DNA of 64,000 nt, taken from assembly GCA_965238175.1 (NCBI GenBank), contig CBDEGZ010000003.1, positions 960,001 to 1,024,000 of the forward strand, given 5' to 3'. Shown piece by piece: positions 15,680 to 35,010 of the stretch (the first letter of the stretch is position 1; the number at the start of each line of letters is the position of its first letter). Under the pieces are notes generated by a model. It did not search any database, was not told where the DNA came from, and worked only from the letters and a program-made list of their open reading frames with translations. Origin of the DNA: Gammaproteobacteria bacterium (GTDB lineage Bacteria; Pseudomonadota; Gammaproteobacteria; CAJXQU01). The position numbers were made by a program, and so were the translations under genes.

Positions 15680-15978
15680 TATGCTTGAGAAGCGCGTTAA
15701 AGGTTTGAAGAAAACTAAGGTGCTGATGCAGGAAAAAATGGCAAATTGTCATCGTCCGGTGAGAGGGATAGCGAAACTTATAGAATCGCAATAGAATTCC
15801 TCGCAAAGCCTTATAAAATCTGGTTTTCCAAGTGACTAGAAGATAAGCGGAGAGTGCTAAAATTGGCTTTTGCAGACCGATTGACTTATGTGTGTGGGAA
15901 GGGTTATAGAACTGCAAAAACGATTTACCTTTCAAAGTGTTAAGGAAATATTTTACTCAAAAAGAAGTAATGGTGGGC
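15680..15978 (+). pseudogene. 3' relic of an older serine integrase homologous to 33389-34948
   Basis: Aligns with ~34615-34912 (LEKRVK..QEK.ANC.RPV; EFLAKPY; EDKR.VLKLAFADRLTYV; LPFKVL; QKEVMVG) with stops and frameshifts. Confidence 0.9.
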
Positions 15979-16077
15979 ATCGATGTGGAAACATCGAACC
16001 AACTTTTCGAGACTTTAGCAGAATGGGATGACTACTTACAACACCATGTTCCATACTTTCAGGAGCCACAACCATGA
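15970..16077 (+). other. Left att junction plus detached integrase C-terminal coding segment
   Basis: MVG|IDVETSNQLFETLAEWDDYLQHHVPYFQEPQP* is in the same frame as the integrase MVG; its stop overlaps the mobC ATG (ATGA). Confidence 0.75.
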
Positions 16078-16517
16078 GCGCCGTAGTCAATCAAAAGCTA
16101 CGGGCTACGACAGCATTTCAAGCAGTTTCCGGTAAACAAAACTCTCACCCCGGCAAACGTGCTGCTCCTTTTTCACTTCGACTGACAGCCGACGAAAGAG
16201 CCTACCTTGAACAATTAGCAGGTAATCGCTCTCTGAGCGCCTACATCCGAGAACAGTTATTGGGTGACAAGGTACATAAACGCCGTGTCTTAAGAAAACC
16301 CAAAATGGATGAGGCGCAATACGCTTCCTTACTGGCAGCATTAGGGCAATCCCATCTCTCATCCAACCTCAACCAATTGGCAAAACATGCCAACATGGGC
16401 ACACTGGATGTTTCAGAAGAAACGGAACGACAATTGGAGGAAGCGTATAAAACCATCTTGGTGGTGCGAGAAACCTTATTGATGGCCTTGGGTCTCAAAA
16501 CAGGAGATAGCACATGA
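16074..16517 (+). CDS. mobC: MobC-like relaxosome accessory protein (RHH)
   Basis: FSLRLTADER, SLSAYIRE, LSSNLNQLAKHAN; overlaps the relaxase start. Confidence 0.9.
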   Translation: MSAVVNQKLRATTAFQAVSGKQNSHPGKRAAPFSLRLTADERAYLEQLAGNRSLSAYIREQLLGDKVHKRRVLRKPKMDEAQYASLLAALGQSHLSSNLNQLAKHANMGTLDVSEETERQLEEAYKTILVVRETLLMALGLKTGDST

Positions 16518-17797
16518 ACCTGCAAGGCAGTCAACGCGGTGGCGCAAAAGACCTAGCATTGCATCTTCTCAAAGAAGAGAACGAACATGTTGAAGTGCAT
16601 GAGCTACGTGGGTTTGTGTCTGATGATTTAGTCTCTGCCCTCAACGAAACCCATGCAATTAGTCGTGGCACCAAAGCCAAACAATTCTTGTTTTCTCTTA
16701 GCCTGAACCCACCTCCAAAAGAAAACGTTTCAACAAAGACGTTTGAGGATGCGATACAACGGGTGGAAGACAAGCTAAACCTGACCAATCAACCCCGCGG
16801 CATTGTCTTTCATGAAAAACAGGGGCGTCGTCACGCACATGCGGTCTGGTCGCGCATTGATACAGAAACCATGAAAGCTATTCCGTTACCGCACACACGT
16901 TACAAACTCAGAGATATTTCCCGCGAGTTATATTTAGAAAATGGCTGGGATATGCCAAAGGGTTATCTGAATTCCAAAGAACGTGATCCTAAAAATTTTA
17001 CCCATGCTCAATGGCAGCAAGCCAAACGCTTGGGTAAAGACCCACGAGAAATAAAGGCTGCGTTTCAGGAGAGTTGGTCAATCAGTGATACTCAAAGCGC
17101 TTTTCAGCAGGCCTTGAAAGAACGGGGTTACGCATTGGCAAAAGGTGATAGACGCGGTTTTGTCGCCCTCGACCATCGCTGTGAAGTCTTCTCAGTCCCA
17201 AAGTGGACAGGCCTTAAAACCAAAGACATCAAAACCAAACTCACCGAGAAAGAAAATCTGCCTTCGGTTGATACTGCCAGAGCGCAGATTTCCAAGGAGA
17301 TGCAATCACGGTTAACGACATTGCAAAGGCAACAACACGAAGCAATTGAGGGACGTGTGAGTGAGATTGAGCAAAAGCGGGTGCCGTTGATGCAAGCTCA
17401 GCAAGCTGAACGCCTTCAACTTAAAGCATCTCAGCAAACTCGCTGGCAAGCTGAAACCTTGCAACGACAGGCGCGATTTAATAAAGGGCTACGAGGATTG
17501 TTTGATCATGTCACAGGTCAGCGCCGCCGTATCCAAGAACAAAATGAGCAGGAAACCTATGAATCCAGCGAGCGCGATAAACAAGAAAAAGACACGTTAA
17601 TCTTTACACAACTCAATCAGCGGCGAATGTTACAGAGCCGTATTGAACGCTTGCAAGATTTTAAGCAGCACCGGGTTGAATCACTCTCCCATGACATTAA
17701 GCAATACCAAGAAGTCAGAGAGAGAAAACGTGAAGTTGTCGATTTTAAAGAGCGAATGCAACAGCGCCGCCAACGAGGGCCTGAACGTGAGCGTTAA
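16514..17797 (+). CDS. Relaxase/mobilization nuclease (MOBP/VirD2-like)
   Basis: FSLSLNP, HEKQGRRHAHAVWSRID (3H motif), coiled-coil C-terminal half, basic tail. Confidence 0.9.
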   Translation: MNLQGSQRGGAKDLALHLLKEENEHVEVHELRGFVSDDLVSALNETHAISRGTKAKQFLFSLSLNPPPKENVSTKTFEDAIQRVEDKLNLTNQPRGIVFHEKQGRRHAHAVWSRIDTETMKAIPLPHTRYKLRDISRELYLENGWDMPKGYLNSKERDPKNFTHAQWQQAKRLGKDPREIKAAFQESWSISDTQSAFQQALKERGYALAKGDRRGFVALDHRCEVFSVPKWTGLKTKDIKTKLTEKENLPSVDTARAQISKEMQSRLTTLQRQQHEAIEGRVSEIEQKRVPLMQAQQAERLQLKASQQTRWQAETLQRQARFNKGLRGLFDHVTGQRRRIQEQNEQETYESSERDKQEKDTLIFTQLNQRRMLQSRIERLQDFKQHRVESLSHDIKQYQEVRERKREVVDFKERMQQRRQRGPERER

Positions 17798-17837
17798 GCC
17801 AATTTTATCCATCCCCTAATAACAGGGGATTAATCGC

Positions 17838-17880
17838 TTGACCTCTCACTTAGTAGCAACTATATTTACGATTGACGTAA
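17838..17880 (+). promoter_or_regulatory. higBA promoter and palindromic operator
   Basis: TTGACC-N17-TATATT followed by TTACG-ATTGA-CGTAA. Confidence 0.6.
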
Positions 17881-17905
17881 CACGTACTTTTTGGTAATAT
17901 AAAAG

Positions 17906-18181
17906 ATGATAATAGACTTTAAGTGCAGGAAAACCGAACGTCTGTTTAATGGTGAACATATCCCGGCGTTTTCCGGCTTTAAGCGACAGGCTGAAAAACG
18001 CCTTCGTATATTGGATGCGGCAGATACACTTGGGGCGTTGCAAGCCTTGCCGAGTAACCGTTTTGAATCCTTATCCGGTGATCGGGCAGGACAATACAGT
18101 ATCCGCGTTAATATGCAGTGGCGTGTTTGTTTTACATGGGACGAAGGTGCTCACGATGTAGAGATAGTGGATTACCACTAG
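17906..18181 (+). CDS. higB: HigB (RelE/ParE-family) toxin
   Basis: LSGDRAGQYSIRVNMQWRVCF, VEIVDYH. Confidence 0.92.
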   Translation: MIIDFKCRKTERLFNGEHIPAFSGFKRQAEKRLRILDAADTLGALQALPSNRFESLSGDRAGQYSIRVNMQWRVCFTWDEGAHDVEIVDYH

Positions 18182-18193
18182 ATAGAGAAATGA

Positions 18194-18505
18194 ATGGAGT
18201 TAATCATGGCTAGAGAAGCAATACACCCCGGCGAAATTCTGGCAGATGAGCTGGAAGAAATCGGAATTACAGCGGCGGAATTATCGCGTCAAATTGATGT
18301 GCCACCCAACCGTATATCACATATTGTTCGTGGTATGCGGGATGTTACGGCGGATACGGCGCTAAGGCTCGGTCAGTTTTTTGGGACGGGGCCGGAGCTT
18401 TGGATGAATCTGCAAAAAACCTATGAACTAGATAAGGCGAAAGCCGAGTTAGGTGCAACGATTAAGAAAATACATCGCTGGCAGCCTCAAGACATGCATG
18501 TTTAA
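18194..18505 (+). CDS. higA: HigA HTH antitoxin
   Basis: IHPGEIL, VTADTALRL, WMNLQ. Confidence 0.92.
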   Translation: MELIMAREAIHPGEILADELEEIGITAAELSRQIDVPPNRISHIVRGMRDVTADTALRLGQFFGTGPELWMNLQKTYELDKAKAELGATIKKIHRWQPQDMHV

Positions 18506-18529
18506 GACGGTAGATTAAGGTATTAAGTT

Positions 18530-18690
18530 ATGGCGACAATGAATATTTCCTTACCGAGCCTATGCGTAAATGGGTCGAGTCCAGAACCGATGATGGTCAA
18601 TATGCGAATAATAGCGATTATGTGCGTGACTTAATTCGTAAAGATATACAGCGAGCCGAGAAAATTCAGCAAGAACTGGATAGTGAGTAA
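18530..18690 (+). pseudogene. ParD-like RHH antitoxin, frameshifted and truncated, no toxin partner
   Basis: MATMNISLP / EPMRKWVE..GQYANNSDYVRDLIRKD; 1-nt deletion near codon 9. Confidence 0.75.
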
Positions 18691-18800
18691 TGGGTAGCAT
18701 ATAAGCAAAGTATTAATTTTTTCGGTAGAAGTTCAATTAGCTGCTAGAGACTACCAACAGTCCCCTGACAGATTGAGACATCAATAATTGGAGAATAACT

Positions 18801-19124
18801 ATGCCAGATTATCACAACTACTATGGTAGTGCAGAGGATCCCACTGAAAAGCACAAAGTTGAGTCTGGGGGAATTCGACGTTATACGAAGAGCAGTGTTT
18901 TCTTCGCTAGTTTTCAACGTTGGAAACCAGGTATTTTGTGGAGGTTCACACCAAATACTAGGCTTGTTGAGTTCACAAACAATTCAGGCAAAGGATGGGT
19001 AACTATGACAGGTTTAGATGGTCCTTCGGATAAACAAACATTCTATGCTTACCAGAACGTGAAAAGTCTGGAACAGGAGATAGCTAAACAAGGTGTGCTG
19101 AAAGAGCCCCGCTACCCAGAATAA
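18801..19124 (+). CDS. Hypothetical protein
   Basis: 107-aa ORF with a GGAG RBS. Confidence 0.6.
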   Translation: MPDYHNYYGSAEDPTEKHKVESGGIRRYTKSSVFFASFQRWKPGILWRFTPNTRLVEFTNNSGKGWVTMTGLDGPSDKQTFYAYQNVKSLEQEIAKQGVLKEPRYPE

Positions 19125-19368
19125 TGGGGCAAATAAACCGATGCTGCCTAACAAGTTCGGGCAACGCATTTCTCGTTTTGTCGTTATTCTCTATAAATAT
19201 CATTAATACATAGGTGAGTTTTCAATCAGTTCCCGCAGGCCATTAAGGAGCGGCCCAAGGTCATCACCCTCAATGATTTTTATTACTTCTTCTTCATGGT
19301 CGGCCAGTTCCGCAATTAACGTACCGTAGGCTTTCATATAAATCCGGTAGTGGTAGAGCGTTTTGGCA

Positions 19369-19959
19369 TTAACCGACATTTGCAAGCACTCCTTCCTCAC
19401 TCACCTGCGAAATAATCCGCGAGACAGTGCGCACAGATACATCAAACTGACTTGCAATTTGCGCCGGGGTTAAACCGGGTTGTTCTTGTAATAAACTTTG
19501 CGCATAAATTATTTCATCATCTGAAAGCTTACGCGGCCTGCCGATATGCACCCCGCGCTTTCGCGCCGCATCCATCCCGGCAATCGTGCGCTCACGTATC
19601 AAATTACGTTCCAGTTCAGAAAACGCATGACGCACTTGATACATGCACTTTCCCATCGGCGTAGTGGTATCAATCGCCTCAGTTAAACAGCGGAACTCAA
19701 CGCCGCGCCTTTCAAATTCTTCGAGCGTATCCAGTGCATTTTTTAATGAGCGAAAGGCCCTGTCCATTTTCCAGACCACCAACACATCACCTTCTTGCAA
19801 GCATGCTAACGCCTGTTCAAATCCGGGCCGGGTTTTGGCTATGGCCGAGACACCTTCATCTTCAAAGACAGGATGGCATCCGGCATCGAGTAAGGCATCA
19901 CGTTGTAAATCGAGATTTTGTTCTTGTGTGCTGACACGGGCGTAACCGATAACGGCCAT
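19369..19959 (-). CDS. Serine resolvase/invertase (Pin/TnpR family)
   Basis: IGYARVSTQEQN, VWKMDRAFRS, GRPRKL, C-terminal HTH. Confidence 0.95.
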   Translation of the reverse strand: MAVIGYARVSTQEQNLDLQRDALLDAGCHPVFEDEGVSAIAKTRPGFEQALACLQEGDVLVVWKMDRAFRSLKNALDTLEEFERRGVEFRCLTEAIDTTTPMGKCMYQVRHAFSELERNLIRERTIAGMDAARKRGVHIGRPRKLSDDEIIYAQSLLQEQPGLTPAQIASQFDVSVRTVSRIISQVSEEGVLANVG

Positions 19960-20010
19960 AGGTTTCTCCTACTTGTTTAATATCATTAACCCTTTGCGCC
20001 GAAGTATAGA

Positions 20011-20126
20011 CAAAAGGGAACCCTTTTGACTTATGCTCATAAACACCTCCTGTCAACCTAAAAACCCGCGCATTTAGCGGCATAAAACCCATGATTGTGA
20101 TTATGGCAAAAGGGTTCCCTTTTGCC
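20011..20126. promoter_or_regulatory. res-like palindrome pair upstream of the resolvase
   Basis: CAAAAGGGAACCCTTTTG (20011) and GGCAAAAGGGTTCCCTTTTGCC (20105). Confidence 0.55.
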
Positions 20127-20382
20127 GAACCTTAAGTGTATGAAAAACAATGTATATTTCGGTTTTTTGGTTGTGGTTTTTTTAGTTGTTTTATTCGTGT
20201 TTTCTTATAGGGCAGCATTCGCACAGGAGGAATTATTATCTGCAAAAAATGATTATATTACCTGCTGGAAGCAACCGTGTGTGTTGGTAGAAGGCAGTAT
20301 CTGGTCAGAAAAAAATCCCAATGGTGTGGCGGTTAGTGTGGCGATGGGCACAAAACCACTTATTCTACAACCAGCGCTTTAG
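20122..20382 (+). pseudogene. Probably truncated exported protein
   Basis: Signal peptide ending AAFAQ; collides tail-to-tail with the ORF on the opposite strand. Confidence 0.4.
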
Positions 20383-20950
20383 CATTATTCAAATTGTTCT
20401 GCTTCTGCGCCCACTGCGCATAATCACCATACTCTGGATGGTCTTTATATTCATTTTTAATGCTGCCATCGGGGTTAAGCATTTCGTTGATAAGATGTGC
20501 CTCTAACCGTTCACGGTAATCAGCCATACTCTCATCGGGATTACGCTGTGGGATTTCATCTTCATCCAATATTTGCAACGCCAATTTTTCCCGCCATTCT
20601 TCACCGTCACGCGCCTGAAACTTTTCTTCCAACGCTTTGATATCGGCTTCCATCCGCTGGAGAGAAGCGCGGACTTGCTCTATTAATTCGGTAATTTGCG
20701 CCGTTTGGCGTTCTTTGTTCTTGCGGGTTTTGGCCTGTTTGGATTGTACGCCGGTGGCCGCGCCACCGCGTTCAATCACACCATCAACCGAACCACCGGG
20801 CTGACCCAGCAGGATTTGGTTTTCTTTTTCGATGAATTCTTGGTGACGCAACGCGTTAAACTCTTCGTCCGACAGGCAGGTGTCACAGTGAATAAAAGTA
20901 TCGGTTAATCCGCCGGATAGTCGCAGAGTATCGGTAGTCGGTTTAACCAT
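20360..20950 (-). CDS. Hypothetical coiled-coil protein (possibly 3'-truncated)
   Basis: 196-aa ORF. Confidence 0.6.
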   Translation of the reverse strand: MVKPTTDTLRLSGGLTDTFIHCDTCLSDEEFNALRHQEFIEKENQILLGQPGGSVDGVIERGGAATGVQSKQAKTRKNKERQTAQITELIEQVRASLQRMEADIKALEEKFQARDGEEWREKLALQILDEDEIPQRNPDESMADYRERLEAHLINEMLNPDGSIKNEYKDHPEYGDYAQWAQKQNNLNNAKALVVE

Positions 20951-21190
20951 AGATCGCCCCGCTTGAAAGTCGGGTCGCCGAAAAACCGCGATATGCTACT
21001 GCATATCGAAGATTAAGAATAACGGCGTTATTCTTAATCACTGTTAAGCAAATATCAGACACACTACACCCCATTGTCCCTACCTCCCTGTGCTCTTAGT
21101 CATTATTATTCCCATAAATACTACCGGGAATTGATTAAAAAATACTTAATACAACTAAAATGGGAAGTGTGAAAAGTACGTAAAAATCGG

Positions 21191-21697
21191 TTACCGTTCG
21201 CGGTCTTTATCCCGGTTAGATTTTGTCCGTATTTTCTGCCGATGTTCACGTACCTGCTTATTCAGGGCTTTATCATCCCGGTCAATCACATTCAGGTTAC
21301 GGTTTCTTGCATTCTCCCGCACCTGTTCAATCGTGGTTTTAATCAAGCCTTGCGGTAAATAACCGTAGGCCAATTCACCAAATTGGGTTTTTCTCACATC
21401 CGGGCCTTGCCATGTAAAACGGTTCACTTCACGGGTGATGATCCAAGATTGATCATCATCTAGCTTTAGACGTTGTTTCGTGGCTAACGGAATTTCTTTA
21501 GCCTGAGTTAAGTCGTCAGGGGGTGTATGCGTAATCGGACAGATAAAGACTTCGGTTTCATCGAACTCATTCAAGCGTTTATGAACAATGACGCAAGGCC
21601 GGGCTTTACGTCCTTCCTCGTGTCCTCGTTGTTGTTCATCCCGCCAAAGATACAAATGACGGATAACCAAGCCTATTTCAGGGGTATCCTCCGCCAT
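21191..21697 (-). CDS. PemK/MazF-like toxin with an extended basic C-terminal tail
   Basis: YLWRDEQ..EEGRKARPCVIV, ICPITHTPP, SWIITREVNRF; downstream of a Phd antitoxin. Confidence 0.75.
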   Translation of the reverse strand: MAEDTPEIGLVIRHLYLWRDEQQRGHEEGRKARPCVIVHKRLNEFDETEVFICPITHTPPDDLTQAKEIPLATKQRLKLDDDQSWIITREVNRFTWQGPDVRKTQFGELAYGYLPQGLIKTTIEQVRENARNRNLNVIDRDDKALNKQVREHRQKIRTKSNRDKDRER

Positions 21698-21703
21698 TAC
21701 TGA

Positions 21704-21964
21704 TTATGAGGATTTATATTCGTGGTCGAATTGTTGGGTTTCTTTGGGAATGGGTAACGTACCTAATTCGTCGATAACCTCTTTGGGTAATTCGTTGGCA
21801 TAGAAGGTTTGTTGGTCAAGCTGGCGTAAGCGGCTGTACTCTTCTGCCGAAATCAGTGCTAAATCATCCCGCCCATGGTTGGTGATGATGACCGCCCCCT
21901 TATGGGCTTCGGTACGAAAGCGACCAAATTCCTTTTGGAATTCCGCTGATGTGATTTTGTTCAT
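21704..21964 (-). CDS. Phd/YefM-family antitoxin
   Basis: ITSAEFQKEFGRF..AVIITNHGR..LISAEEY. Confidence 0.88.
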   Translation of the reverse strand: MNKITSAEFQKEFGRFRTEAHKGAVIITNHGRDDLALISAEEYSRLRQLDQQTFYANELPKEVIDELGTLPIPKETQQFDHEYKSS

Positions 21965-22085
21965 GGTGATATCTCCTAATCCTATATCGGCATTAAATGC
22001 CTATTATTTATATTATCCGTAAAATATGGATTTTACAAGAAGAATATATTCCTACCTTTTTATGCCTGTCTGGAAGAGTTGTTCT

Positions 22086-22262
22086 TTATTCTGGCTGTCT
22101 ATCGGGAAACTGAGATAACTCAGTTTCCAACGCCTCAGACAGAGTGTTGCGTTCATCAACATTATCAAGGCTAAGTCCATCGTGTTGTTCAAGGATAGTC
22201 GAGATAATCTCGCGTAAACTTCGACTATTTTCTTTTTTATCTGTGTGTTTTTGATTTGGCAT
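22086..22262 (-). CDS. Small hypothetical protein (58 aa) downstream of ardA
   Basis: MPNQKHTD...DGLSLDNVDER with an AAGGA RBS; below the ORF-track cutoff. Confidence 0.45.
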   Translation of the reverse strand: MPNQKHTDKKENSRSLREIISTILEQHDGLSLDNVDERNTLSEALETELSQFPDRQPE

Positions 22263-22303
22263 TTTAGTATCCTTTGCGTTGTTGTTTTTGCCTCTTTTTC
22301 AGC

Positions 22304-23974: not shown

Positions 23975-23993
23975 AACAGAGTGGTTTTGTTAC

Positions 23994-26027: not shown

Positions 26028-26059
26028 TTCATACCTTTCTGACTTGAGAGTTTTTTTAG

Positions 26060-26521: not shown

Positions 26522-26524
26522 TAA

Positions 26525-29053
26525 TTAGATACCATAAGCTACAGGGAAAATCTTACTAAAATAATTGTGAAAGCTCTTGTATTCGTTATATAACTCTTCC
26601 TGAGCTGGAAGCTCATCTTTTTTCACAGCGTAGTAGTAAACATCCTCAATAGATTTTTTAACAATCAAATCTGTATTAAATAGATTGCAATCAATGTTTG
26701 ATAAATCTCCCCATACGTTTACGTACTTTTTCATCTCCACCTCTTGCGCAGCTTTTAACAAACCCATAAAACGAACTACCTTTCGAAGTTTGTGCCCCAT
26801 GACTTTTACATAGCAGTGGGGGTAATCTTCTCTCACGAGATAAGAATAATTGAACATAGTTATGTATTGAAACGGTGCATATTCTAAGGACTGAGGGTTT
26901 TGATATAAATTAGGTAGCCCTAGTTCCTTATTCCGAATTTCAACTCTCGGTAATATACTTAGCCGATGAGTTTCAGGTGGGAGTGGCAATTTTGGGTCAT
27001 CAATTACTAATTGCGTATATAAAAAATCAGCCACCAAGGGCAGATCATCACTATTTGCATCTTCATGAAAAAGTTCCTTAGCTCTAGGCGTAAGCTCGAT
27101 ATTTTCATGGTCAAATTTCTGTTTCCTCAGGCTAGAGAGTCGTCTTTCTACCTGCAATAATCTTGGGCCTTGTTGAATGCGTTGAAGTCTGGTTATAGTC
27201 TTACAAAAACTTATGATATCGTAAAACCCATTAGGGTTGCCTTCACCACTTCTATTATTTGGGTAATCGCAAAAATGTTCTAACAACTCCTTCAACCTGA
27301 TCTTCCCGTTTGTTTTTAAAAAGTCCACAATCATTGGTATTAGCCAATAATCTGGTGTGCTTGGCCGTTCTTCATTGGTATAGGCTAAAAACACATTTGG
27401 GAAATGGGAGTTATGCTCTGAAAAACGAATTCTATGCCTAGAGGCTTGCACCATGATTGCAAGGTTTGGTTTCTTAAAAATCCTATTTTGCGCATTAACA
27501 TTTAGTTTATCGTGAGAAGAGTCCTGTTGCACCCATGAGAATGCTTTAAAAACTCTTATCGCGTCACGGAGGCCTGAGCCCGATAGTTTTACTATCCTAT
27601 CAATTGACTTTGCATGCCTATTATTCATTGCCTTTACTGAAACAGGATTTTTTTCATAGTCACTTAGTTTTTTTGCGAGATCACTTACGGTTTTTACTAG
27701 GGCATTGATTTGTTTGATATGGTTTATTACCTTATGGTTCTTTTCATCTTGTGAGTTTAGGGTATCAAAGGAATCGTTCAGAGCCTTTCTTAACTCACTC
27801 AAAGTGGCATTCATATCCAAAAAGGTATCGGGTAATTCAATAAGACTTTCATCGGTGGGTTTCTTATGATTGATCAGTTCACACTGCAATAAAAGTCGAC
27901 ATCCAATAGCTAGGTAATGTAAACGTTTGAGAATAATTAACTGTGCAGGTGCTTTTGAAGTTGAGTGAAGCGAGTATGTGTTTTCTGATGAAATTAGCTT
28001 ATCTCCACCACCTGCAGATATTGATGAAGAAAGTTGCTCTAGAAGACTATATGAATCTTTTCTAAGTATAATTAGTATCGCCCCACAAACCTTTGACCAA
28101 TTTCTATTTGATGAAAGAAGATTTCCTAAAACAGTTATAAACGAAAACAAGCACTTCTGTTTTTTGTCCTTGATTTTTGTCTTGCCATTTTTCACCGATA
28201 TAGTTTGTATTTCGTCATTCTCATGAAAAACAAAGTCAATATTATCTAAGATGATGATAACATTCCGCTTTGAGGCTCTTTTTAGATAGCCTAAGTACTC
28301 TATAGTCTCAACTTCTGCTTTATGTTCTTCTTTCTTCTGAACATACTTAAATATATTCTTCTCGTATGTTTCAAAGGCATCTTTATCATTTTCAGAAAAA
28401 AAGTTAACTTCTTTGTGAGTGGTTAAGCTCTCTCGTACTTGATTCACTTTTCTTACAACTTCAAGACAGAATTGATTCATATCGAAACCATCACGATAGA
28501 ATTGTTGTAGGTTTATTCTAATGAACCATATCTTATCGTTCTGAATCGAGTTTGCTATTAAATGTGACGACAGAATATAACTAAGAAATGATGACTTTCC
28601 AGAGCCAACATCACCGACTATGGAGAAAACTGAACTACGGCGATTAACTGAGCTTTTAATAAAAACCCTTTGAAAAAATTCGTCGATGGATTTTTCTGCA
28701 GACTCTTCTAATTGCGAGCCATGACTTTGCCCTTGCCCATGATGCACCATAGGCAAATCAAGAAGTTTTAGAATGTAATAATATCTTCTTAAAATATCAT
28801 TCCTTCCCCCCGAAGTTAAAAGGGCATCTTCAGGAATATTTTGAGGATTATCTAAAGCCTTTCCATTTAGAAGCCCACTGGCATCAAAACTTATAGCCTG
28901 TTCATCAAAAACAAATTGGAATAATTTATCTAGCTCATTATACCTTGCTCTAAAAGGACCCTCATCGTTATTAACCAATGGATTAACGGTTGATAAGCTG
29001 CCCTCATGTTCTGACGTACAATCACGATATGTAAACCAATTAGGATTTGTCAT
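26525..29053 (-). CDS. Large P-loop NTPase (STAND/AAA-like), function unknown
   Basis: Walker A GDVGSGKS, Walker B IIILDNID; AT-rich; 842 aa. Confidence 0.8.
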   Translation of the reverse strand: MTNPNWFTYRDCTSEHEGSLSTVNPLVNNDEGPFRARYNELDKLFQFVFDEQAISFDASGLLNGKALDNPQNIPEDALLTSGGRNDILRRYYYILKLLDLPMVHHGQGQSHGSQLEESAEKSIDEFFQRVFIKSSVNRRSSVFSIVGDVGSGKSSFLSYILSSHLIANSIQNDKIWFIRINLQQFYRDGFDMNQFCLEVVRKVNQVRESLTTHKEVNFFSENDKDAFETYEKNIFKYVQKKEEHKAEVETIEYLGYLKRASKRNVIIILDNIDFVFHENDEIQTISVKNGKTKIKDKKQKCLFSFITVLGNLLSSNRNWSKVCGAILIILRKDSYSLLEQLSSSISAGGGDKLISSENTYSLHSTSKAPAQLIILKRLHYLAIGCRLLLQCELINHKKPTDESLIELPDTFLDMNATLSELRKALNDSFDTLNSQDEKNHKVINHIKQINALVKTVSDLAKKLSDYEKNPVSVKAMNNRHAKSIDRIVKLSGSGLRDAIRVFKAFSWVQQDSSHDKLNVNAQNRIFKKPNLAIMVQASRHRIRFSEHNSHFPNVFLAYTNEERPSTPDYWLIPMIVDFLKTNGKIRLKELLEHFCDYPNNRSGEGNPNGFYDIISFCKTITRLQRIQQGPRLLQVERRLSSLRKQKFDHENIELTPRAKELFHEDANSDDLPLVADFLYTQLVIDDPKLPLPPETHRLSILPRVEIRNKELGLPNLYQNPQSLEYAPFQYITMFNYSYLVREDYPHCYVKVMGHKLRKVVRFMGLLKAAQEVEMKKYVNVWGDLSNIDCNLFNTDLIVKKSIEDVYYYAVKKDELPAQEELYNEYKSFHNYFSKIFPVAYGI

Positions 29054-29180
29054 AATTTTCTCAACTTGTATTTATATGTTTTTATATGAATTTCGTTGTG
29101 CTAATTTATGAATTCAAATATTTTGGTTTTTATTTTTCGATAGTTTAGAATAAAGTAAGAATCCACACTAAGCGTTATGC

Positions 29181-29789
29181 TTAGAAATCGCTGACAACAT
29201 CTAAGAAGGATTTGCTTTCGTTCAAGTCCAGAGGTTCTGCTTCGAGCTCTGATTTAAACAATAGAAATGCCTTTTCAGATAATTTATATATTATTTTCTC
29301 GTTCGAAATTTCAGTCAGGCCACTCTCTCTCCCCGCTGCCATTATCAGAGAAGCATAGCCGACGTAACTACCAAAAAAACGACTATTAATTCCATATGAT
29401 TGTTTGAATCGACCTTTTAGAATTTTCAAAAAAAAGAGCATTTGTGGTTTCACTTCAAGCATCGAATTGTTGACATCTTTTGGTGAAACCCTTCTCTCTT
29501 CATCGTAATTCCATGTACCCACCAAAAAGTGCCGTATAGTCGCAATTAATTTTTTCATTAAATCTGGCCTTTTTAGAGCTAACTGGCGATAGTTGAAAGT
29601 CTGTAACGCACGGCTTCCTAGTGCTTGGTAATATTTATGCACAGTTACCTTTGATACGAAAGTTTTCTTTGCGGTTTTGTCAGCCTCAACTCCTTCACAC
29701 CAATATTTTAGAACACTTAAAAACTTATCCTCACTCAGGTTAGAGTTTTTTACGAACTTATTTTTAGGTGTATAGAATTTACGCGGCAT
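29181..29789 (-). CDS. IS1595-transposase-derived protein lacking the DDE core
   Basis: N-terminus SNLSEDKF..LKYWCEG..ADKTA..VSKVTVHKYY..L..R and C-terminus LKGRFKQSYGI..FF...EPL resemble the two ends of IS1595 transposases. Confidence 0.55.
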   Translation of the reverse strand: MPRKFYTPKNKFVKNSNLSEDKFLSVLKYWCEGVEADKTAKKTFVSKVTVHKYYQALGSRALQTFNYRQLALKRPDLMKKLIATIRHFLVGTWNYDEERRVSPKDVNNSMLEVKPQMLFFLKILKGRFKQSYGINSRFFGSYVGYASLIMAAGRESGLTEISNEKIIYKLSEKAFLLFKSELEAEPLDLNESKSFLDVVSDF

Positions 29790-29904
29790 TCATTGATGGT
29801 ACAACAGTCTTTACTAGCTTTTCTATGGTTGCTGTCATTGTAAAAATATCCCCTATGATATGAAACCTCTTAAAAAAACACCGCAGAAGCGGTAAGAGGT
29901 ACAA

Positions 29905-30207
29905 ATGTTCAACAAATCCAAGTCCTCTAGTAATAAGGGGCAATCAACCGTCGAAAGTTCACTCTACGGGATGGCAAATATGCTGGCATTAATAGCTGCA
30001 TTTCTTGTCGCTCCGCAGATTTACGAGCATTCGGCAGATCCCGTCTATATGTATTTACTTAATTCCTACAGCGATCAAACACTGGCGGAATTAGGAATCT
30101 ACGTGTGGACATTCCTTGCAACCGCCTGTGTGTATTTTTTAAGCCGCGCCATCTTTGTATTGGCGCTCATGCTGATTGCACAGCGGCTGCTTGTTTTAGC
30201 ATTTTAA
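29905..30207 (+). CDS. Small multi-TM protein
   Basis: GAGG RBS; 2-3 hydrophobic segments. Confidence 0.7.
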   Translation: MFNKSKSSSNKGQSTVESSLYGMANMLALIAAFLVAPQIYEHSADPVYMYLLNSYSDQTLAELGIYVWTFLATACVYFLSRAIFVLALMLIAQRLLVLAF

Positions 30208-30225
30208 ATAAACAGGAGAAATATC

Positions 30226-30351
30226 ATGCCAAAAAAAGTATTAAGCAAACCAGTCGGTACTGTCCATAGAGTCGAATCCAAATGGACTTTTAGTGACTAT
30301 GTAATCGGTGCTGTCATTGTGTTTGTTTTAATCGCTGTCTTCTCTGGCTAA
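30226..30351 (+). CDS. 41-aa single-TM microprotein
   Basis: AGGAGA RBS; MPKKVLSKPVGTVHRVESKWTFSDYVIGAVIVFVLIAVFSG. Confidence 0.6.
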   Translation: MPKKVLSKPVGTVHRVESKWTFSDYVIGAVIVFVLIAVFSG

Positions 30352-30413
30352 TTAGCTAGCAAGACATTCATCCACCGCCCCGCTTCGGCGGGGCAACTTT
30401 CTGGATAAACATT

Positions 30414-32024
30414 ATGAACTACGAACAAGACCGTTTCGGCAGTGCCGGAGCCGTTTCAACCCATGCGTTGAAACACGCCAAGATTATTGGTGGTAAAGGC
30501 ATCAGTTTTGGTTTTGATGCCACCAAGCGTCATGAACTCCGTATTCCCACCGATGGCTCAACCGCCTTATTCGGTGGTGCAGGAAGTGGTAAAAGCGCAG
30601 GCCCCTTTGCCAATGCATTAATTGGTGGACATCTACCGGGTAATTTTATCTGTTTTGACCCACGCGGCGAACTCGCTGCTGTTAGCATGCTATCCCTATC
30701 GCTACAGGGTTATGAAATTTTTTACATTAACCACACCGGCATGTTGGGTTTACCCCAGCATCAAGTCAATCCACTCGACCATCTGAGAATTGATAGTCCA
30801 AGTTTAATTCCCGATGCCCAAAAATCGGCACTGGACTTTTGTCCTACCCCGGCGGGGATGCGAGCGAGTTGGGCCTTTGATGATGCGAGGCGTTGGCTTA
30901 CAGATTTATCACTCTATGATGCGGAACGTAATGGCTGTGCCAGCTTACCCGGTATCTATCAATTACTGCTTTCCTTACAAGGCGATTTAAACCAATGGTG
31001 CCAACATCTAGATCGGATGCTGCAATCACGCTTTGCAACCGTCCGTAGCTTTGCTAATGAGATTATGAGTTTGCAGCAAGAAGGCCGTGAGAGTTTTACC
31101 GCGCCTATGGGTGTGTTGCAAAATGCCTTTGCCTTTATGCGTGACCCACGTTTGCAACATACCTTCAGTGGTAATGACTTTTCTCTGCAATGGCTCACAG
31201 AGCCTAATCGCAAAATCGGAGTATTCGTCAATTGGCCTATTGAGTATATCGACACCCAAGCCCCGGCCATTCGGCAAGTGATTGGCTCGGCCATTCAAAA
31301 CAAACTACGTCAGCCGGGGAGTCAGCCTGTTAGTGTATTAATTGACGAAGCAGGTCAACTCAAAAACTTTCCTTCTGTGAGAGAACTTTTCACCTTTGGC
31401 CGAGGTGCAGGTCTTATCAGCAATATGGTGGCATGGCAGGAGATTTCTCAAATTCGTGCTGCTTTTGGCCCCCAAGCTGATGAGATTATTGGTTCAGCAC
31501 AGTTCAGAGTATTCAAGGGCGTACGTACGATGGACAGTGCCATGATGGTCTCACGTATGGCAGGCACCATGACGTTGGAATATGACGCTGTAAAAGAACA
31601 ATCCGATGCCCGGCGTCTAAAACAACAGGCCGCCCAACGGATGCTAACAGGTGGGAGTTTCTTTGAAGCGGCGGCGGATTTACGGCATTACAACGAGGCC
31701 GAAGAGCATCGCACCAAACAGGCCCGTCTAGTACTACAACCAGATGAAGTGCTGAACCTGCCACCCACTGCCATGGTCGCGTTTGCCTCCGGTTTGGTCG
31801 AAGGCCCAATTATTGGACATTGGATTAATCACTTTGAGCGTGCTGACTTTCCCGGAAAGTATCTCAACAACCCCTACCATGGAGAAGAGGTGCTACTTAA
31901 AACACGTTGGGGGTCAAAAAAGGCACGCATTATCGAAGAATCTGTTCCCGATGTCATGGCACATCTGCCGCAATACCAAAGCGGTACATGGCGATATGTG
32001 GAAGGCTATCGCCCAAAAATATGA
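30414..32024 (+). CDS. VirD4/TraG-like type IV coupling protein without an N-terminal TM domain
   Basis: FGSA at residues 8-11, Walker A GGAGSGKS, FDPRGEL, Walker B LIDEAGQL, ARLVLQPDEV. Confidence 0.88.
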   Translation: MNYEQDRFGSAGAVSTHALKHAKIIGGKGISFGFDATKRHELRIPTDGSTALFGGAGSGKSAGPFANALIGGHLPGNFICFDPRGELAAVSMLSLSLQGYEIFYINHTGMLGLPQHQVNPLDHLRIDSPSLIPDAQKSALDFCPTPAGMRASWAFDDARRWLTDLSLYDAERNGCASLPGIYQLLLSLQGDLNQWCQHLDRMLQSRFATVRSFANEIMSLQQEGRESFTAPMGVLQNAFAFMRDPRLQHTFSGNDFSLQWLTEPNRKIGVFVNWPIEYIDTQAPAIRQVIGSAIQNKLRQPGSQPVSVLIDEAGQLKNFPSVRELFTFGRGAGLISNMVAWQEISQIRAAFGPQADEIIGSAQFRVFKGVRTMDSAMMVSRMAGTMTLEYDAVKEQSDARRLKQQAAQRMLTGGSFFEAAADLRHYNEAEEHRTKQARLVLQPDEVLNLPPTAMVAFASGLVEGPIIGHWINHFERADFPGKYLNNPYHGEEVLLKTRWGSKKARIIEESVPDVMAHLPQYQSGTWRYVEGYRPKI

Positions 32025-32035
32025 GGTAATTATGA

Positions 32036-32578
32036 ATGATCACCAAAGACGAACTCAAAAGACTGGAACAACCGTCCCGGCAAAACAAAGAACTGCATTA
32101 TACGATTGGCGGCTCTGTAGAATCTGCCGTTCACTCAAATTTAGAGAGTGAGCGTATCAGCAAGCTTAATAAAGGCCACCGCATCATGAATAAGGCCGTT
32201 CAACAGTTTGAAAATAACATGGCCTTTAAATCACGCGAAGGACTGGCACACAGTCAGTTTCAGCAATTGGTGAATAGTGAACCACCGCCGCCAGACAGAA
32301 AGCTTGCTGAACAAACATGGCAGGATAATCATAAGGTGGCGCACCAAGAAACATTCGATAAAGCCCGCAAACAGTTTCGCTCTGCGATGCAACAGGCAAC
32401 CCAAGGTGAGCTTCCCATTATCGATACCGATTCAGGCTATGGTGCAGGTCAGGACAATACCACCGTTGAGAAATACGTTAACCATACCACTAAGGAACAA
32501 CAACCTGTCCGCAATGAACGGGTTAAGGCATTCGCACAAAATATGACGCAAGACCGCAGTCAAGGTTTAGAACGCTAA
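32036..32578 (+). CDS. Hypothetical protein with a relaxase-like C-terminal tail
   Basis: GAGG RBS; ends AFAQNMTQDRSQGLER. Confidence 0.7.
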   Translation: MITKDELKRLEQPSRQNKELHYTIGGSVESAVHSNLESERISKLNKGHRIMNKAVQQFENNMAFKSREGLAHSQFQQLVNSEPPPPDRKLAEQTWQDNHKVAHQETFDKARKQFRSAMQQATQGELPIIDTDSGYGAGQDNTTVEKYVNHTTKEQQPVRNERVKAFAQNMTQDRSQGLER

Positions 32579-32606
32579 TTTTTTACCAGCACACAGGAGA
32601 ACCATT

Positions 32607-32915
32607 ATGAGCAACGAGAATGAACAACACACAACCGTAATCAATTCACAGCAAGGTAATAGACCTATAGACACACTTTGGGATGGTTCTATTAAAGTCG
32701 CTATTTTTAAAAACCAACGGCAAAACGGTGTGTCATTTTCTGCTGAGGCAGGTCGGATTTATACCGATAGCCACGGTCAGACACAGGAAGCCAAAAGTTT
32801 TTCAGGTAGAGAATTACTTAGCGTGGCAAAACTTTCAGAAAAAGCCTATGACCGTATCGGCGAATTCAAGCAACAAATGAAATCTCAGCAACGAGGCACA
32901 GAGCGAGAACGCTAG
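32607..32915 (+). CDS. Putative ssDNA-binding (PC4/Whirly-like) protein with a relaxase-like tail
   Basis: PIDTLWDGSIKVAIFKN...RIYTD..G...KSFSGRELL; ends EFKQQMKSQQRGTERER. Fold call is inference. Confidence 0.55.
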   Translation: MSNENEQHTTVINSQQGNRPIDTLWDGSIKVAIFKNQRQNGVSFSAEAGRIYTDSHGQTQEAKSFSGRELLSVAKLSEKAYDRIGEFKQQMKSQQRGTERER

Positions 32916-32931
32916 ACAAAAAATAGAGATT

Positions 32932-32959
32932 GCCGTTGTGAATGCAACGGCTGTTTTTT
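32932..32959 (+). terminator. Rho-independent terminator of the T4CP operon
   Basis: GCCGTTG-N6-CAACGGC followed by TGTTTTTT. Confidence 0.75.
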
Positions 32960-32962
32960 GTA

Positions 32963-33005
32963 TTGCCAGATTTAAAAATATCGGTTAAATGTTCTCGTTA
33001 TGTTC
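32963..33005 (+). promoter_or_regulatory. Promoter of the integrase operon with an alphaproteobacterial LexA box
   Basis: TTGCCA...TTAAAT immediately followed by GTTC-TCGTTAT-GTTC (32991-33005). Confidence 0.6.
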
Positions 33006-33054
33006 TATTTAGAAAAGGAGAGAGCATTGATGTATTAATTCAAGACACGGAGGC

Positions 33055-33402
33055 GTGATGAAAAATAATAACACTATTGAAATCGCTGACTATAGCGAAG
33101 AGCAAAACGATATTGCGGTTGTGCCGCCCCTGCAATTGGAGCCGGATGACTATCGGGATGAGTTGGCAGAATTTGAGCTTACACCCGAGCAGGAAACTGA
33201 ACTGTTGCAAGTACTCTGGAATATCATGTCAACAATGGTTGACCTTGGTTGGGGACTGGATTCTGTACAACTGTTTTCATTGCCAAAAGCACATAAAATT
33301 GACAGCGATTCCAGTGACAAGGTAAAACTAACAGACAACAACCAAGCATTTAATCAGACCGCAGGAAATACAACTGAGAAAGGCAACAATGATGAAAAAT
33401 GA
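33055..33402 (+). CDS. Hypothetical protein overlapping the integrase start (candidate excision/directionality factor)
   Basis: GGAGG RBS; 14-nt overlap with the integrase; LWNIMSTMVDLGWG. Confidence 0.65.
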   Translation: MMKNNNTIEIADYSEEQNDIAVVPPLQLEPDDYRDELAEFELTPEQETELLQVLWNIMSTMVDLGWGLDSVQLFSLPKAHKIDSDSSDKVKLTDNNQAFNQTAGNTTEKGNNDEK

Positions 33403-34948
33403 AACAAATAAGAAAGCCCTTATCTACTGTCGCGTTTCCAGTAAGAAACAAACTAAAGGCAGTGGGTTGGACAGTCAGGAACACCGTTGCCGTCAATATG
33501 CAGCCTCTAAGGGCTATGAAGTCGAAGCTGTTTTTCCCGATGATGTAACCGGAGCAGGTGATTTTATGAAACGTCCCGGCATGGTGGCCTTGCTAGCGTA
33601 TCTGCAAGCGCAGACAGACAGCAATTACGTGGTGATTTTCGACGATCTCAAACGTTTCGCTCGTGACACTATCTTTCACTGGGGGTTACGTCACAAGCTC
33701 TTAGAATATGGCGCTACAGTGGAATGCCTGAATTTCAACTTTGAAGATACACCGGAAGGTGAGTTTGTTGAAACCATTGTTGCTGCGCAAGGGCAGCTTG
33801 AACGCCAGCAAAACCGCCGTCAGACCTTGCAAAAGATGAAAGCCCGACTTGAGAAAGGTTTTTTCGTTTTTCAGGCACCCATTGGTTATCGCTATCAGAA
33901 ATCACAGTATGGTGGAAAAGAATTAGTCAGGAATGAACCGCTTGCCAGTATCATGCAAGAGGCATTGGAAGGGTTTGCCACGGGTCGGTTTCAGATCAAG
34001 GCTGAGGTGAAACACTTTCTGGAGAGTTTTCCTGATTTCCCACGAGGCCCAAGCGGAGTCATCGGTAGTTCACGTATTGATGAAATGCTGACCCGTGTTA
34101 CTTACGCTGGATATATTGAGCATAAGGACTGGGGAGTGAGTTTACGAAAGGCGCGCCATGAAGGAATAATCAACTTTGAAATGTTCCAGAAAATACAGGA
34201 GCGTCTTAGAGGTCGAGCTAATGCGCCAGCCAGAAAAAATATCAATCAGGATTTTCCGTTGCGCGGCTTTATCAGTTGCTCGTGTGGAAAACCGTTAACC
34301 GCAGCATGGTCAAAGGGGCGTAATACCCATTACCCCTATTATTTTTGTCAGGCTCGCGATTGCAGTCATTACGGTAAGTCCATCAAGCGTGAAGTCATAG
34401 AAGGCGAATTTAAAACCCTGCTCAAACAACTAACCCCAACAAAGGAATTAATCGGGGTCGCCAGCATCATGTTTGAAAAGCTATGGAATCATCGAGCGCA
34501 ATATCAACAATCTCGTGTCTCCATGCTTGATACTGAATATATCAAAATTGATCGCAGTATCGACAAATTGCTTGATCGAGTCGTTGATGCTGAATCACCA
34601 ACAGTGATAAATGCACTTGAGAAACGAGTTAAAGCATTGGAAGAAAAGAAAATTGTGATACAGGAAAAAACCGCCAATTGTCGCCGCCCGGTAAAGGCCT
34701 ATAGTGACAGTTATAGAACCGCTATGGAATTCCTCGCTAAGCCTTATAGGCTATGGGCTTCCGATCGGCTTGAAGATAAGCGAGCAGTGCTAAAATTAGC
34801 CTTTGCAGACCGCTTAACCTATGTGCGTGGCGAAGGTTATAGAACCGCAAAAACCACCTTACCTTTCAAGGTATTAGGGGATTTTTTTGCTCAAAAAGAA
34901 GTAATGGTGGGCCCGGGAGGACTCGAACCTCCGACCAATGGATTATGA
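33389..34948 (+). CDS. Large serine recombinase (integrase); C-terminus reads antisense into the tRNA
   Basis: IYCRVSSKKQ, DDLKRFARD, recombinase domain, Zn ribbon CSCG...YYFC..C, coiled coil. Confidence 0.95.
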   Translation: MMKNETNKKALIYCRVSSKKQTKGSGLDSQEHRCRQYAASKGYEVEAVFPDDVTGAGDFMKRPGMVALLAYLQAQTDSNYVVIFDDLKRFARDTIFHWGLRHKLLEYGATVECLNFNFEDTPEGEFVETIVAAQGQLERQQNRRQTLQKMKARLEKGFFVFQAPIGYRYQKSQYGGKELVRNEPLASIMQEALEGFATGRFQIKAEVKHFLESFPDFPRGPSGVIGSSRIDEMLTRVTYAGYIEHKDWGVSLRKARHEGIINFEMFQKIQERLRGRANAPARKNINQDFPLRGFISCSCGKPLTAAWSKGRNTHYPYYFCQARDCSHYGKSIKREVIEGEFKTLLKQLTPTKELIGVASIMFEKLWNHRAQYQQSRVSMLDTEYIKIDRSIDKLLDRVVDAESPTVINALEKRVKALEEKKIVIQEKTANCRRPVKAYSDSYRTAMEFLAKPYRLWASDRLEDKRAVLKLAFADRLTYVRGEGYRTAKTTLPFKVLGDFFAQKEVMVGPGGLEPPTNGL

Positions 34949-34981: not shown

Positions 34982-35010
34982 TGAATGGGTTGGCAATTAT
35001 AGCCGAGTGC

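Follow-up and report, generated by a model that had tools for sequence, protein, structure and literature searches.

In a 64,000-nucleotide stretch of a Gammaproteobacteria genome (assembly GCA_965238175.1, contig CBDEGZ010000003.1; hereafter the window), an integrative mobilisable element of 18,934 bp, occupying positions 15979-34912, is inserted at the 3' CCA end of a tRNA-Met gene. We propose, with a probability of about 0.7, that the large serine recombinase (LSR) gene of this element is built across the attachment site attP, that integration swaps the C-terminus of the enzyme, and that excision would rejoin a conserved tail to it while coupling it to the mobC and relaxase genes. A first-pass annotation, made from the letters of the window, had already placed the attachment site inside the integrase gene and deduced such a swap, and this interpretation is supported by sequence comparison and structure prediction. 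Of the four outcomes named in that annotation as refuting it, three were open to a check, and none of them counted against the idea. As far as sequence can tell, the anatomy of the locus, the frame kept across the core, the conservation of the tail as protein and the occurrence of natural fused open reading frames (ORFs) are demonstrated by the comparisons below.

In the proposed cycle, the last ~10 LSR codons before the core shared by both element ends would constitute the P arm of attP, and the P' arm, together with the conserved peptide, would be the true 3' end of the gene. Integration would cut the gene at the core, leaving a chromosomal copy that reads into the antisense strand of the tRNA and an enzyme devoid of the peptide, whose coding sequence would remain 18.9 kb away at attL, joined to mobC-relaxase through an ATGA overlap. 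Excision would bring the two parts together again, and the circle would encode the LSR with its tail and, translationally coupled to it, mobC and then the relaxase, closing the operon that begins with the coupling protein. The tail may then fold onto the junction between DNA-binding domain 2 (DBD2) and the coiled coil of the recombinase, and alter its activity or directionality.

The integrase frame and its tail peptide

The LSR reading frame ends with KEVMVG followed by PGGLEPPTNGL and a stop codon, the final residues being read antisense from tRNA-Met(CAT) (Table 1). The nonamer ATGGTGGGC at this end is in frame with the start of the LSR ORF, the core codons being ATG GTG GGC, and the same nonamer at the other end runs on as MVG and IDVETSNQLFETLAEWDDYLQHHVPYFQEPQP up to a stop at 16075-16077. 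This TGA overlaps the ATG of mobC at 16074 (ATGA), and the stop of mobC overlaps the ATG of the relaxase at 16514 in the same manner. The two cores are spaced by 18,934 bp, start to start. The antisense ending within the tRNA (34905-34981), the 32-residue tail and the two overlaps with and within the mobilisation genes had been described by the first-pass annotation and are seen in the sequence. The annotation missed the class of the enzyme and the true extent of the shared repeat: the perfect identity of attL and attR spans 23 nt (15956-15978 = 34890-34912) rather than nine, and forms the end of a ~300-nt repeat that includes a decayed LSR remnant.

The integrase is a large serine recombinase and not a tyrosine integrase. 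A resolvase catalytic domain and a zinc ribbon are recognisable in it, with matches to PF00239 (E 1.3e-24) and PF13408 (27.3 bits, for a cut-off of 25.3), and to PF07508 with 19.4 bits, below the cut-off of 21.1. By sequence, it matches the catalytic domain of the TP901-1 integrase (5e-6) and the A118 integrase (8e-5), and the best folds found with the model of a homologue are those of the SPbeta, Bxb1 and PhiC31 integrases (E 7e-18 to 1e-13). Residues Y13, R15 and S17, along with other residues of the catalytic domain, are invariant in 73 LSR homologues, and the model of homologue P0038 displays the antiparallel helices of a coiled coil (353-401 and 405-431).

With regard to the attachment sites, a YYGAAC motif lies at an offset of 23 nt from TGG in seven of seven attL P' arms, and the copy of this motif in the tRNA T-loop lies at an offset of 18 nt in five of five attR B' arms. 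Such an outward shift in attP compared with attB is expected by the serine-integrase model for the outer DNA-binding domain. In studied serine integrases, DBD2 is shifted by about 5 bp between the two sites. That DBD2 sits at different positions on attP and attB is also stated in PMC12286644. The shared cores of 7-9 bp (TGGTG...) bound the possible positions of the crossover. A dyad symmetry perceived by eye in the reconstructed attP (CTCAAAAAG / CTTTTCGAG) was dropped, its centre falling outside the shared core.

This arrangement is a family trait. Among 8000 scored candidates, 3020 matched the LSR at E<=1e-3, and pattern matching in the 120 best homologues identified an antisense-tRNA C-terminus (G-[LIFV]-E-P and the like) in 101, these residues corresponding to the CCA end and the discriminator base of the tRNA read backwards. 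The junction codon follows a conserved LPF motif at a distance of 15 residues in 97 of these 101 homologues and is ATG on the LSR side in 82, and the junction residue pairs are MV (63), MA (19), LV (7), LA (5), VA (4) and VV (3). Two of the 120 homologues lack the tRNA-derived ending and terminate instead in SSNALFDILTDW... and SSNSLLDTLADW..., resembling TSNQLFETLAEW of the window; the rest comprise 15 with other endings or contig ends and two without the LPF landmark.

Further islands show the same design. In the source genome, a second island carries the core TGGTGCCC followed in frame by an open tail of 65 codons ending in ...LFSTLADWNDYLENHTPYFKEPQP, the TGA of which overlaps a mobC homologue (ATGA) that precedes a relaxase. 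A third island is a 3.8-kb mini-element at tRNA-Leu(CAA) (G000:C3 184401-188230, locus L002), with the core AAATGGTGC and an in-frame tail of 31 residues; it contains the tail, a 470-aa protein made of ~40-residue tandem repeats on the opposite strand, a small partner ORF and an intact LSR with an ORF of 550 aa, and neither tblastn nor the ORF list revealed mobC or other mob genes in it. In two other genomes (G319 and G375), an LSR at tRNA-Arg and a tail locus share the cores TGGCGCGC and ATGGCGC. The frame is kept across the core in all five LSR/attL pairs checked, namely, three in the source genome and those of G319 and G375, which answers the concern that a crossover outside the shared core might break it.

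The tail has the consensus SNxLFxTLxxWxxYL...PYFxEPQP. A search of 1.84 billion protein representatives with a profile of nine tails retrieved 381 clusters at E<=1e-3, including 31 at E<=1e-10, with values down to 1e-15; within single genomes, tail matches reach E 1e-20. Nearly all of the 150 best matches are ORFs between 34 and 130 aa in length that follow the pattern [MLV][VA]xxx(G/E)E(T/S)SNxLFETLEEWNxYLxxxxPYFxEPxP. A profile built from five tails and searched against 399 further genomes of the class gave seven true matches, belonging to several families, and one false match; the raw tally of nine in 400 genomes includes the latter (L014, in G251). A DNA-pattern scan for one sub-motif yielded 54 genome loci, 53 of them real, distributed over gamma-, beta- and alpha-Proteobacteria, Nitrospirota, Acidobacteriota, Bdellovibrionota and others, and a scan of metagenomes yielded 80 tails. 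The two false matches, L014 and the Leptospira locus L073, were rejected as tails, the motif lying there inside large unrelated ORFs; L073 is still counted among the 54. Loci L009 and L021 look like a single locus fetched twice, their tails and their 20 upstream nucleotides being the same, and L020 and L074, with the same tail peptide, may be duplicates; all were counted as fetched.

No family in Pfam or NCBIfam corresponds to the tail, a match to DUF5063 at E 0.093 being disregarded, and none corresponds to the ORF of 115 aa situated upstream of the LSR. A tblastn search with the tail against the plasmid collection found no plasmid form; the lone match, at E 0.4 in a nod-gene region of Mesorhizobium, was judged to be due to chance. 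A word-indexed homology search with the tail profile returned only the two proteins whose tails had gone into it, the word index being too coarse for a motif of 35 aa.

Two variants of the tail were noticed. In a long class of ~65 aa, the core is separated from the usual motif by an additional conserved segment, SNxxxLLAEWNxxNK...PE (for instance L001 684-878, L012 1393-1596, P0146, P0155, P0166, P0181, P0182 and others), which looks like a partial duplication of the motif. A subfamily dominated by soil sequences, ending in VASLRGESSNQLLETLEEWNDYLER and a stop, terminates right after the core motif (...WNDYLER) and includes metagenome loci in the series L078-L153 and genome contigs in the series L040-L066; several of its loci share conserved sequence upstream of the junction (...TDAQE).

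Conservation of this kind could in principle act on DNA alone, as part of the attP P' arm and/or of an origin of transfer (oriT) upstream of mobC, the open frame being a mere by-product. oriT sites are often found upstream of mob operons, and the residues E-T-S-N coincide with YYGAAC, the mimic of the T-loop (offset 18) that keeps a fixed offset of 23 nt in all seven attL. This explanation is nonetheless very improbable. Only the first tail residues are partly set by the DNA (YYGAAC giving E-T-S-N), and past this motif the invariant T, L and L columns use four, four and five codons, respectively, over 14 aligned codons of nine tails. By NG86, non-synonymous divergence (dN, median 0.30) is lower than synonymous divergence (dS) in seven of seven pairs with a defined non-zero dS, and dS is undefined in 28 of 36 pairs, which we read as saturation. 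Moreover, it is a protein profile of 35 positions that finds the 381 clusters, and the frame of the long class stays open over 65 codons in a genome of 40% GC. From these comparisons, the tail is judged to be conserved as protein and widespread, which is what the first-pass annotation required of homologous integrases.

Natural fusions between LSR and tail exist in at least eight database proteins. Two are full-length (P0014 and P0038), and six consist of a C-terminal LSR fragment followed by the tail (P0212, P0240, P0254, P0151, P0137 and P0171); P0212, for example, is a 223-aa fragment that is 36% identical to LSR residues 325-507 before continuing into the tail. The same fusion is seen at locus L012.

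On the other side of the tail, its stop shares bases with the start codon of the following ORF (ATGA or TAATG type) in 31 of the 54 genome loci and 22 of the 80 metagenome tails, and mobC and a relaxase are recognisable in 23 and 25 of the 54 genome loci, respectively. In the predicted circle, the coupling protein, three ORFs, the LSR with its tail, mobC and the relaxase would follow one another on one strand. The conserved stop/start overlap backs the proposal that excision fuses the integrase with mobC-relaxase in one operon. The accompanying claim that mobC has no promoter of its own fares less firmly: a scan for the sigma-70 consensus found no site in 15980-16070, which is weak evidence, and a single weak site at 15759-15786, inside the LSR remnant, with three sites in the region compared with 6.1 expected from shuffles. 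mobC and the relaxase would be poorly expressed while the element is integrated.

Predicted docking of the tail and directionality

The complex between LSR residues 1-505 (alignment of 73 rows) and the 35-aa tail (nine rows) was predicted in three runs, which gave ipSAE values of 0.00, 0.64 and 0.61 (median 0.61) compared with 0.00 for the best control, with partner pLDDT of 36, 72 and 72. The ipSAE mark applied is reached by 58 of 80 solved complexes and by two of 110 mismatched pairs; at least 14% of the contacts are common to the runs. The predicted interface associates LSR residues 362-373, 441-449, 455-470 and 490-499 with tail residues 4 and 8-30, including the invariant L12, L16, W19 and L23. 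On the LSR side, the contact residues F362, W366, F448, L449, L470 and P492 are invariant or nearly so in the 73 homologues. In the AlphaFold2 model of P0038, where LSR and tail are naturally fused, the interface segments correspond to the first turns of the coiled coil and to the helices and strand that follow it; the tail helix has a pLDDT of 55-72 in this model and of 72-89 in that of P0212. The predictions support a docking of the tail where the coiled coil leaves DBD2, which is the site of recombination directionality factors (RDFs).

PMC12286644 states that all verified RDFs are predicted or seen to bind the DBD2/coiled-coil junction, that RDFs of unrelated folds redirect the coiled coil, that integrase-RDF fusions are functional, and that C-terminal extensions of SCCmec recombinases have been suggested to occupy or block the RDF site. 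The tail resembles RDFs and engineered integrase-RDF fusions in that it is predicted to contact an equivalent region; it differs from them in being only ~35 aa long and unlike any RDF in sequence, and it would be joined to the enzyme in the excised state alone. It could activate the circle form of the enzyme, as in the case of IntP compared with IntX of Mx8 (PMC6070905), mimic an RDF or shield the RDF site. The idea of the first-pass annotation that the integrase isoform controls directionality gains a predicted docking site, whichever direction the effect would take.

A candidate for a separate directionality factor, or for an accessory subunit, is the ORF of 115 aa. In five of five other intact loci checked, an ORF of ~95-115 aa immediately precedes the LSR and touches or overlaps the start of the latter. 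Its homologues are found in the source genome (G000:C3 1703213-1703494, 186274-186017 and 1743254-1743493) and at L015, L016 and L017, with a shared motif that reads roughly LLxxLWxIMxTxVDxGWGxxSVQxF.

These elements can be assembled into a more ambitious proposal, which we put forward tentatively and regard as considerably less probable than the cycle itself, namely, that the tail is a built-in directionality module, dependent on the recombination state, of a large overlooked family of tRNA-targeting LSRs. Only the enzyme made from the circle would bear the peptide, which would fill the hinge between DBD2 and the coiled coil, and an isoform with its hinge filled would be locked into integration and blind to an excision factor. 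In the chromosomal isoform, devoid of the peptide, the hinge would be free for a separate factor licensing excision, for which the 115-aa ORF is the candidate, and the same rejoining would turn on mobC and the relaxase by translational coupling. If so, each DNA state would encode the enzyme suited to leave that state, and no timing by RDF decay would be needed.

Fused or separate tail, mobile or fixed element

Several observations weigh against the proposed cycle. Fused forms are rare in assemblies, with two of 120 LSR homologues, one remnant in 54 genome loci and none of the 80 metagenome tails, and some of the fusions may be junctions of tandem arrays, not circles. The five pairs in which the frame is kept are not independent events, because the in-frame arrangement is inherited. 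The large soil subfamily (...WNDYLER) usually has no recognisable mobC or overlap, and 58 of the 80 metagenome tails lack the overlap. As to docking, one of the three runs gave 0.00, the tail of P0038 is modelled with only moderate confidence, and LSR-RDF complexes have already been solved (9dxf, 9tep), so that the passing result could partly be a memory of that site from the PDB. No contig joins 34912 to 15979 or 15978 to 34913 in four runs searched over 15450-35060; the island is present in two runs of one metagenomic sample (Logan contigs, word depth ~7 and ~4), no RNA run being listed with it, and these contigs are uninformative on excision or expression. The left arm of attL is here a decayed LSR remnant, not a native attB arm, and it is therefore by inference only that the present copy is taken to excise still. 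Finally, 27 of the 150 best database matches are small ORFs that start exactly at the junction, and 48 of 59 attL junction codons could act as starts.

In the same contigs, joints at 23002>34903 and 27220>32617, together with two inside the LSR, were set aside, their short sides of 21-35 nt looking like other organisms or repeats.

The counts of ORFs and of potential start codons at the junction raise the question of whether the tail could be a small gene in its own right, standing first in the mob operon and starting at an NTG supplied by the att core. A free peptide of ~35 aa would then be made in both states, and the read-through of the core by the LSR would be incidental. Beyond these ORFs beginning at the junction and the 48 ATG, GTG or TTG codons, this view draws on the frequency of the stop/start overlap with mobC (31/54) and on the fact that the complex was predicted from two separate chains, a free peptide being able to dock in trans. 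The junction codons themselves do not behave as selected starts. They are ATG in 23, GTG in 14, TTG in 11, CTG in six and others in five of the 59 attL junctions from genomes, and GTG in 48, ATG and TTG in 13 each, CTG in five and another in one of the 80 from metagenomes. The base before TGG at attL belongs to the host side and all four values occur; potential starts make up 48 of the 54 NTG codons (89%), near the 75% expected for a free base. No shared Shine-Dalgarno sequence is apparent by eye in the 20 nt upstream of the attL junctions. With the junction base free and no shared ribosome-binding site, a separate start codon is therefore not under visible selection. In addition, the LSR register through the core is fixed in 97 of 101 homologues, in the long class ~40 conserved codons, none of them an internal start, separate the motif from the core, the third island of the source genome has a tail without detectable mobC, and fused ORFs exist. 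We consider an independent gene unlikely, and the comparisons favour the tail as the C-terminus of the integrase itself in the attP configuration; in some hosts, a free peptide may also be made from attL.

The remnant to the left of attL bears on the second question, that of the mobility of the present copy. It covers approximately LSR residues 405-508 and forms with the LSR gene a direct repeat of ~300 nt (blastn 79% over 299 nt, E 3e-66). Its tblastn pieces fall in three frames (15669-15773, 15770-15967 and 15859-15978), with frameshifts and stops. Read on the plus strand, attL consists of a left arm that comes from the old attB and of the P' arm contributed by the element. This left arm is an LSR remnant with the same tRNA-derived bases at its end, so that a related element was already sitting in the target before the present one arrived, and a tandem insertion, the older element having later been almost wholly lost, would be the simplest reading. 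A like picture is offered by locus L012 in G220, where an LSR remnant of ~200 bp is fused in frame to a long tail, and by several database fragments. Tandem accretion is also known for the ssrA islands of Dehalococcoides (PMC3146451).

Two tails were observed within a single locus of 2-5 kb at L047, L048, L053, L059, L095, L103, L107, L114 and L142, some of them with stops or broken junctions, which suggests tandem arrays or stacked remnants of such elements.

The present copy might then be a fixed relic, the architecture of the family being real and neither excision nor a swap of C-termini taking place in the source genome. Its pseudogene-like left arm would fit such a fate, as would the insertion sequence (IS) copies at 13111 and 35074 that flank the region and point to rearrangement, and the partial LSRs and mini-element held by the source genome. 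Against it, the LSR, mobC, relaxase, coupling protein and 115-aa ORF are all intact, the invariant residues of the catalytic domain are present and the 23-nt identity of the ends is perfect; moreover, if the outer arm of attB is arbitrary host sequence, a foreign left arm need not block recombination. A relic appears to us the less probable outcome, without being a negligible one.

Comparison with known systems and setting of the element

The primary papers on the myxophage Mx8 are reportedly those of Tojo 1996 and Magrini 1999. In PMC6070905, IntP/IntX of Mx8 (and Mx9) are described with attP inside int, integration giving a new 3' end and an altered enzyme, and the swap in Mx8 is presented as a switch controlling excision rates. 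The present element likewise has its att core inside the integrase ORF and acquires a new 3' end upon integration. However, Mx8 Int is the tyrosine recombinase of a phage, whereas the enzyme described here is the LSR of a mobilisable element, and the piece that it loses is a short peptide conserved across phyla and translationally coupled to mobC-relaxase.

A comparable LSR is DsiB of the Dehalococcoides ssrA islands, a CcrB-like enzyme whose gene overlaps the 3' ~70 bp of its target, the transfer-messenger RNA (tmRNA) gene; it was speculated by the authors to be fully functional only on the circle or beside an island supplying the 3' fragment (PMC3146451). Both LSR genes overlap an RNA-gene target, and the Dehalococcoides islands accrete in tandem, as would be the simplest reading here. 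In that paper, by contrast, the C-termini of DsiB are described as divergent with no conserved 3' fragment identified, the target is tmRNA, a second small serine recombinase (DsiA) is present, and no coupling to mob genes is described.

In Tn916, the transfer genes are promoterless when integrated, and excision puts them behind xis-int, with transcripts crossing the joint (PMC5812530). The gene order of the present element would similarly place transfer genes downstream of the integrase after circularisation. In Tn916, however, the two are linked by transcription alone and the integrase protein stays the same, whereas here it is the integrase ORF that runs across the joint, with an overlapping stop and start coupling the next gene to it.

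Mycobacteriophage BPs displays integration-dependent immunity. SSV1-type integrases are reportedly split by integration (PMC8371274), and ICEKp1 is reported to have state-dependent int promoters (PMC13023037). All three have, like the present element, an attachment site in or beside a gene, and their states express different products or amounts; unlike it, they rely on tyrosine recombinases, and the affected gene is a repressor, the int promoter or an int that is split outright.

An attP inside int is already established for the Mx8/Mx9 tyrosine integrases, and the tail and its coupling in an LSR are the new part. In the literature covered, subscription journals being outside it, there was no description of the conserved tail, of its coupling to mobC or of a tRNA-targeting LSR family of this size, and no C-terminal swap in serine integrases beyond the speculation on DsiB. 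In 2014, serine integrases were stated in the Islander work not to be known to target tRNA genes (PMC4383910), and a 2017 review of mobilisable elements placed serine-recombinase elements mainly in Firmicutes, inserted within genes (PMC5704250). A 2020 preprint reports a large serine recombinase in 27 of 937 Prochlorococcus elements.

Serine integrases are major tools of genome engineering and the control of their direction is an active structural question; a DNA rearrangement rewriting the C-terminus at the RDF site, if true, would be a new solution to directionality. The tRNA-targeting family is abundant in alpha-, beta- and gamma-Proteobacteria, Nitrospirota and others. With regard to annotation, hundreds of "hypothetical" ORFs of 35-100 aa would be detached ends of integrase genes, the C-termini annotated for these integrases are antisense tRNA, and the tail profile precisely marks the far end (attL) of such islands. 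Furthermore, tying mobC-relaxase to the rejoined gene could be a means of preventing the relaxase from nicking the integrated element.

The source genome (3.35 Mb, 40% GC) belongs to an order represented by seven genomes of one genus. The tRNA genes targeted by this LSR family in it are Met, Leu(CAG), Leu(CAA), Arg and Lys, and, judging from sequence, the family has colonised at least five tRNA genes of this single genome. Further LSR copies in it (G000:C3) are an intact one at 1743525-1745066, which reads into a tRNA fragment not called by ARAGORN, and partial ones at 2527157-2528103 and 713426-714436, adjoining tRNA-Arg(ACG) and tRNA-Lys(TTT).

Table 1. Attachment sites and genes of the element, by position in the window.
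Feature	Position	Strand	Remarks
Decayed 3' remnant of a related LSR gene	15669-15978	+	~LSR residues 405-508; left arm of attL
attL core copy, ATGGTGGGC	15970-15978	+	TGGTGGGC = 3' acceptor/CCA end of tRNA-Met
Tail ORF (MVG + 32 aa + stop)	15970-16077	+	Putative 3' terminus of the LSR gene after excision (attP form)
P' arm of attP	15979-15999	+	TCGAAC 23 nt from TGG, T-loop mimic shifted 5 bp outward; encodes ...ETSN
mobC / NikA-like relaxosome accessory gene	16074-16517	+	PF21983 2.7e-6; PF05713 below cut-off
Relaxase, MobA/VirD2-like	16514-17797	+	PF03432 3.3e-16
Type IV coupling protein, TraG/VirD4-like	30414-32024	+	PF02534 1.1e-23
115-aa ORF	33055-33402	+	Directly upstream of the LSR, overlaps its start
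LSR, integrated (attR) form, 519 aa	33389-34948	+	Last 11 residues = antisense tRNA codons
attR core copy, ATGGTGGGC	34904-34912	+	Within the LSR ORF, overlaps the tRNA 3' end
tRNA-Met(CAT)	34905-34981	-	Integration target, B' arm of attB

The coupling protein heads a block on the plus strand, in which three small ORFs precede the LSR. A Pfam scan of 20 island ORFs (ORFs below 50 aa and a few others being outside the scan) revealed no VirB-type mating-pore protein, and with an LSR and a relaxase of its own the island is therefore classified as an integrative mobilisable element. Further cargo includes toxin-antitoxin pairs (a HigB-like toxin with a helix-turn-helix (HTH) partner, and a PemK/Phd pair), a small resolvase and ArdA. 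A possible defence module is formed by an 842-aa ATPase-like protein (26525-29053, minus strand) with weak AAA_16/Rad50-like matches, followed by an ORF of 153 aa (26060-26521, minus strand); a DUF5131 protein and a protein with a GMT-like winged HTH domain, at 23192-25247 on the plus strand, possibly belong to the same module.

The element is flanked by rpoD on its right and by a 2OG-Fe(II) oxygenase gene on its left. The two IS copies (13111-~14330 and 35074-~36300, plus strand) are in direct orientation and code for a 344-aa transposase with HTH and rve domains; they are identical over the first 605 nt compared and enclose between them the oxygenase gene, the LSR remnant, the complete element and tRNA-Met. 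Being direct repeats on either side of this block, they could delete or move it by homologous recombination. To the left of the first IS copy, an ORF of 281 aa (11169-12014, plus strand) codes for an IS200-like Y1 transposase, which is long for that family.

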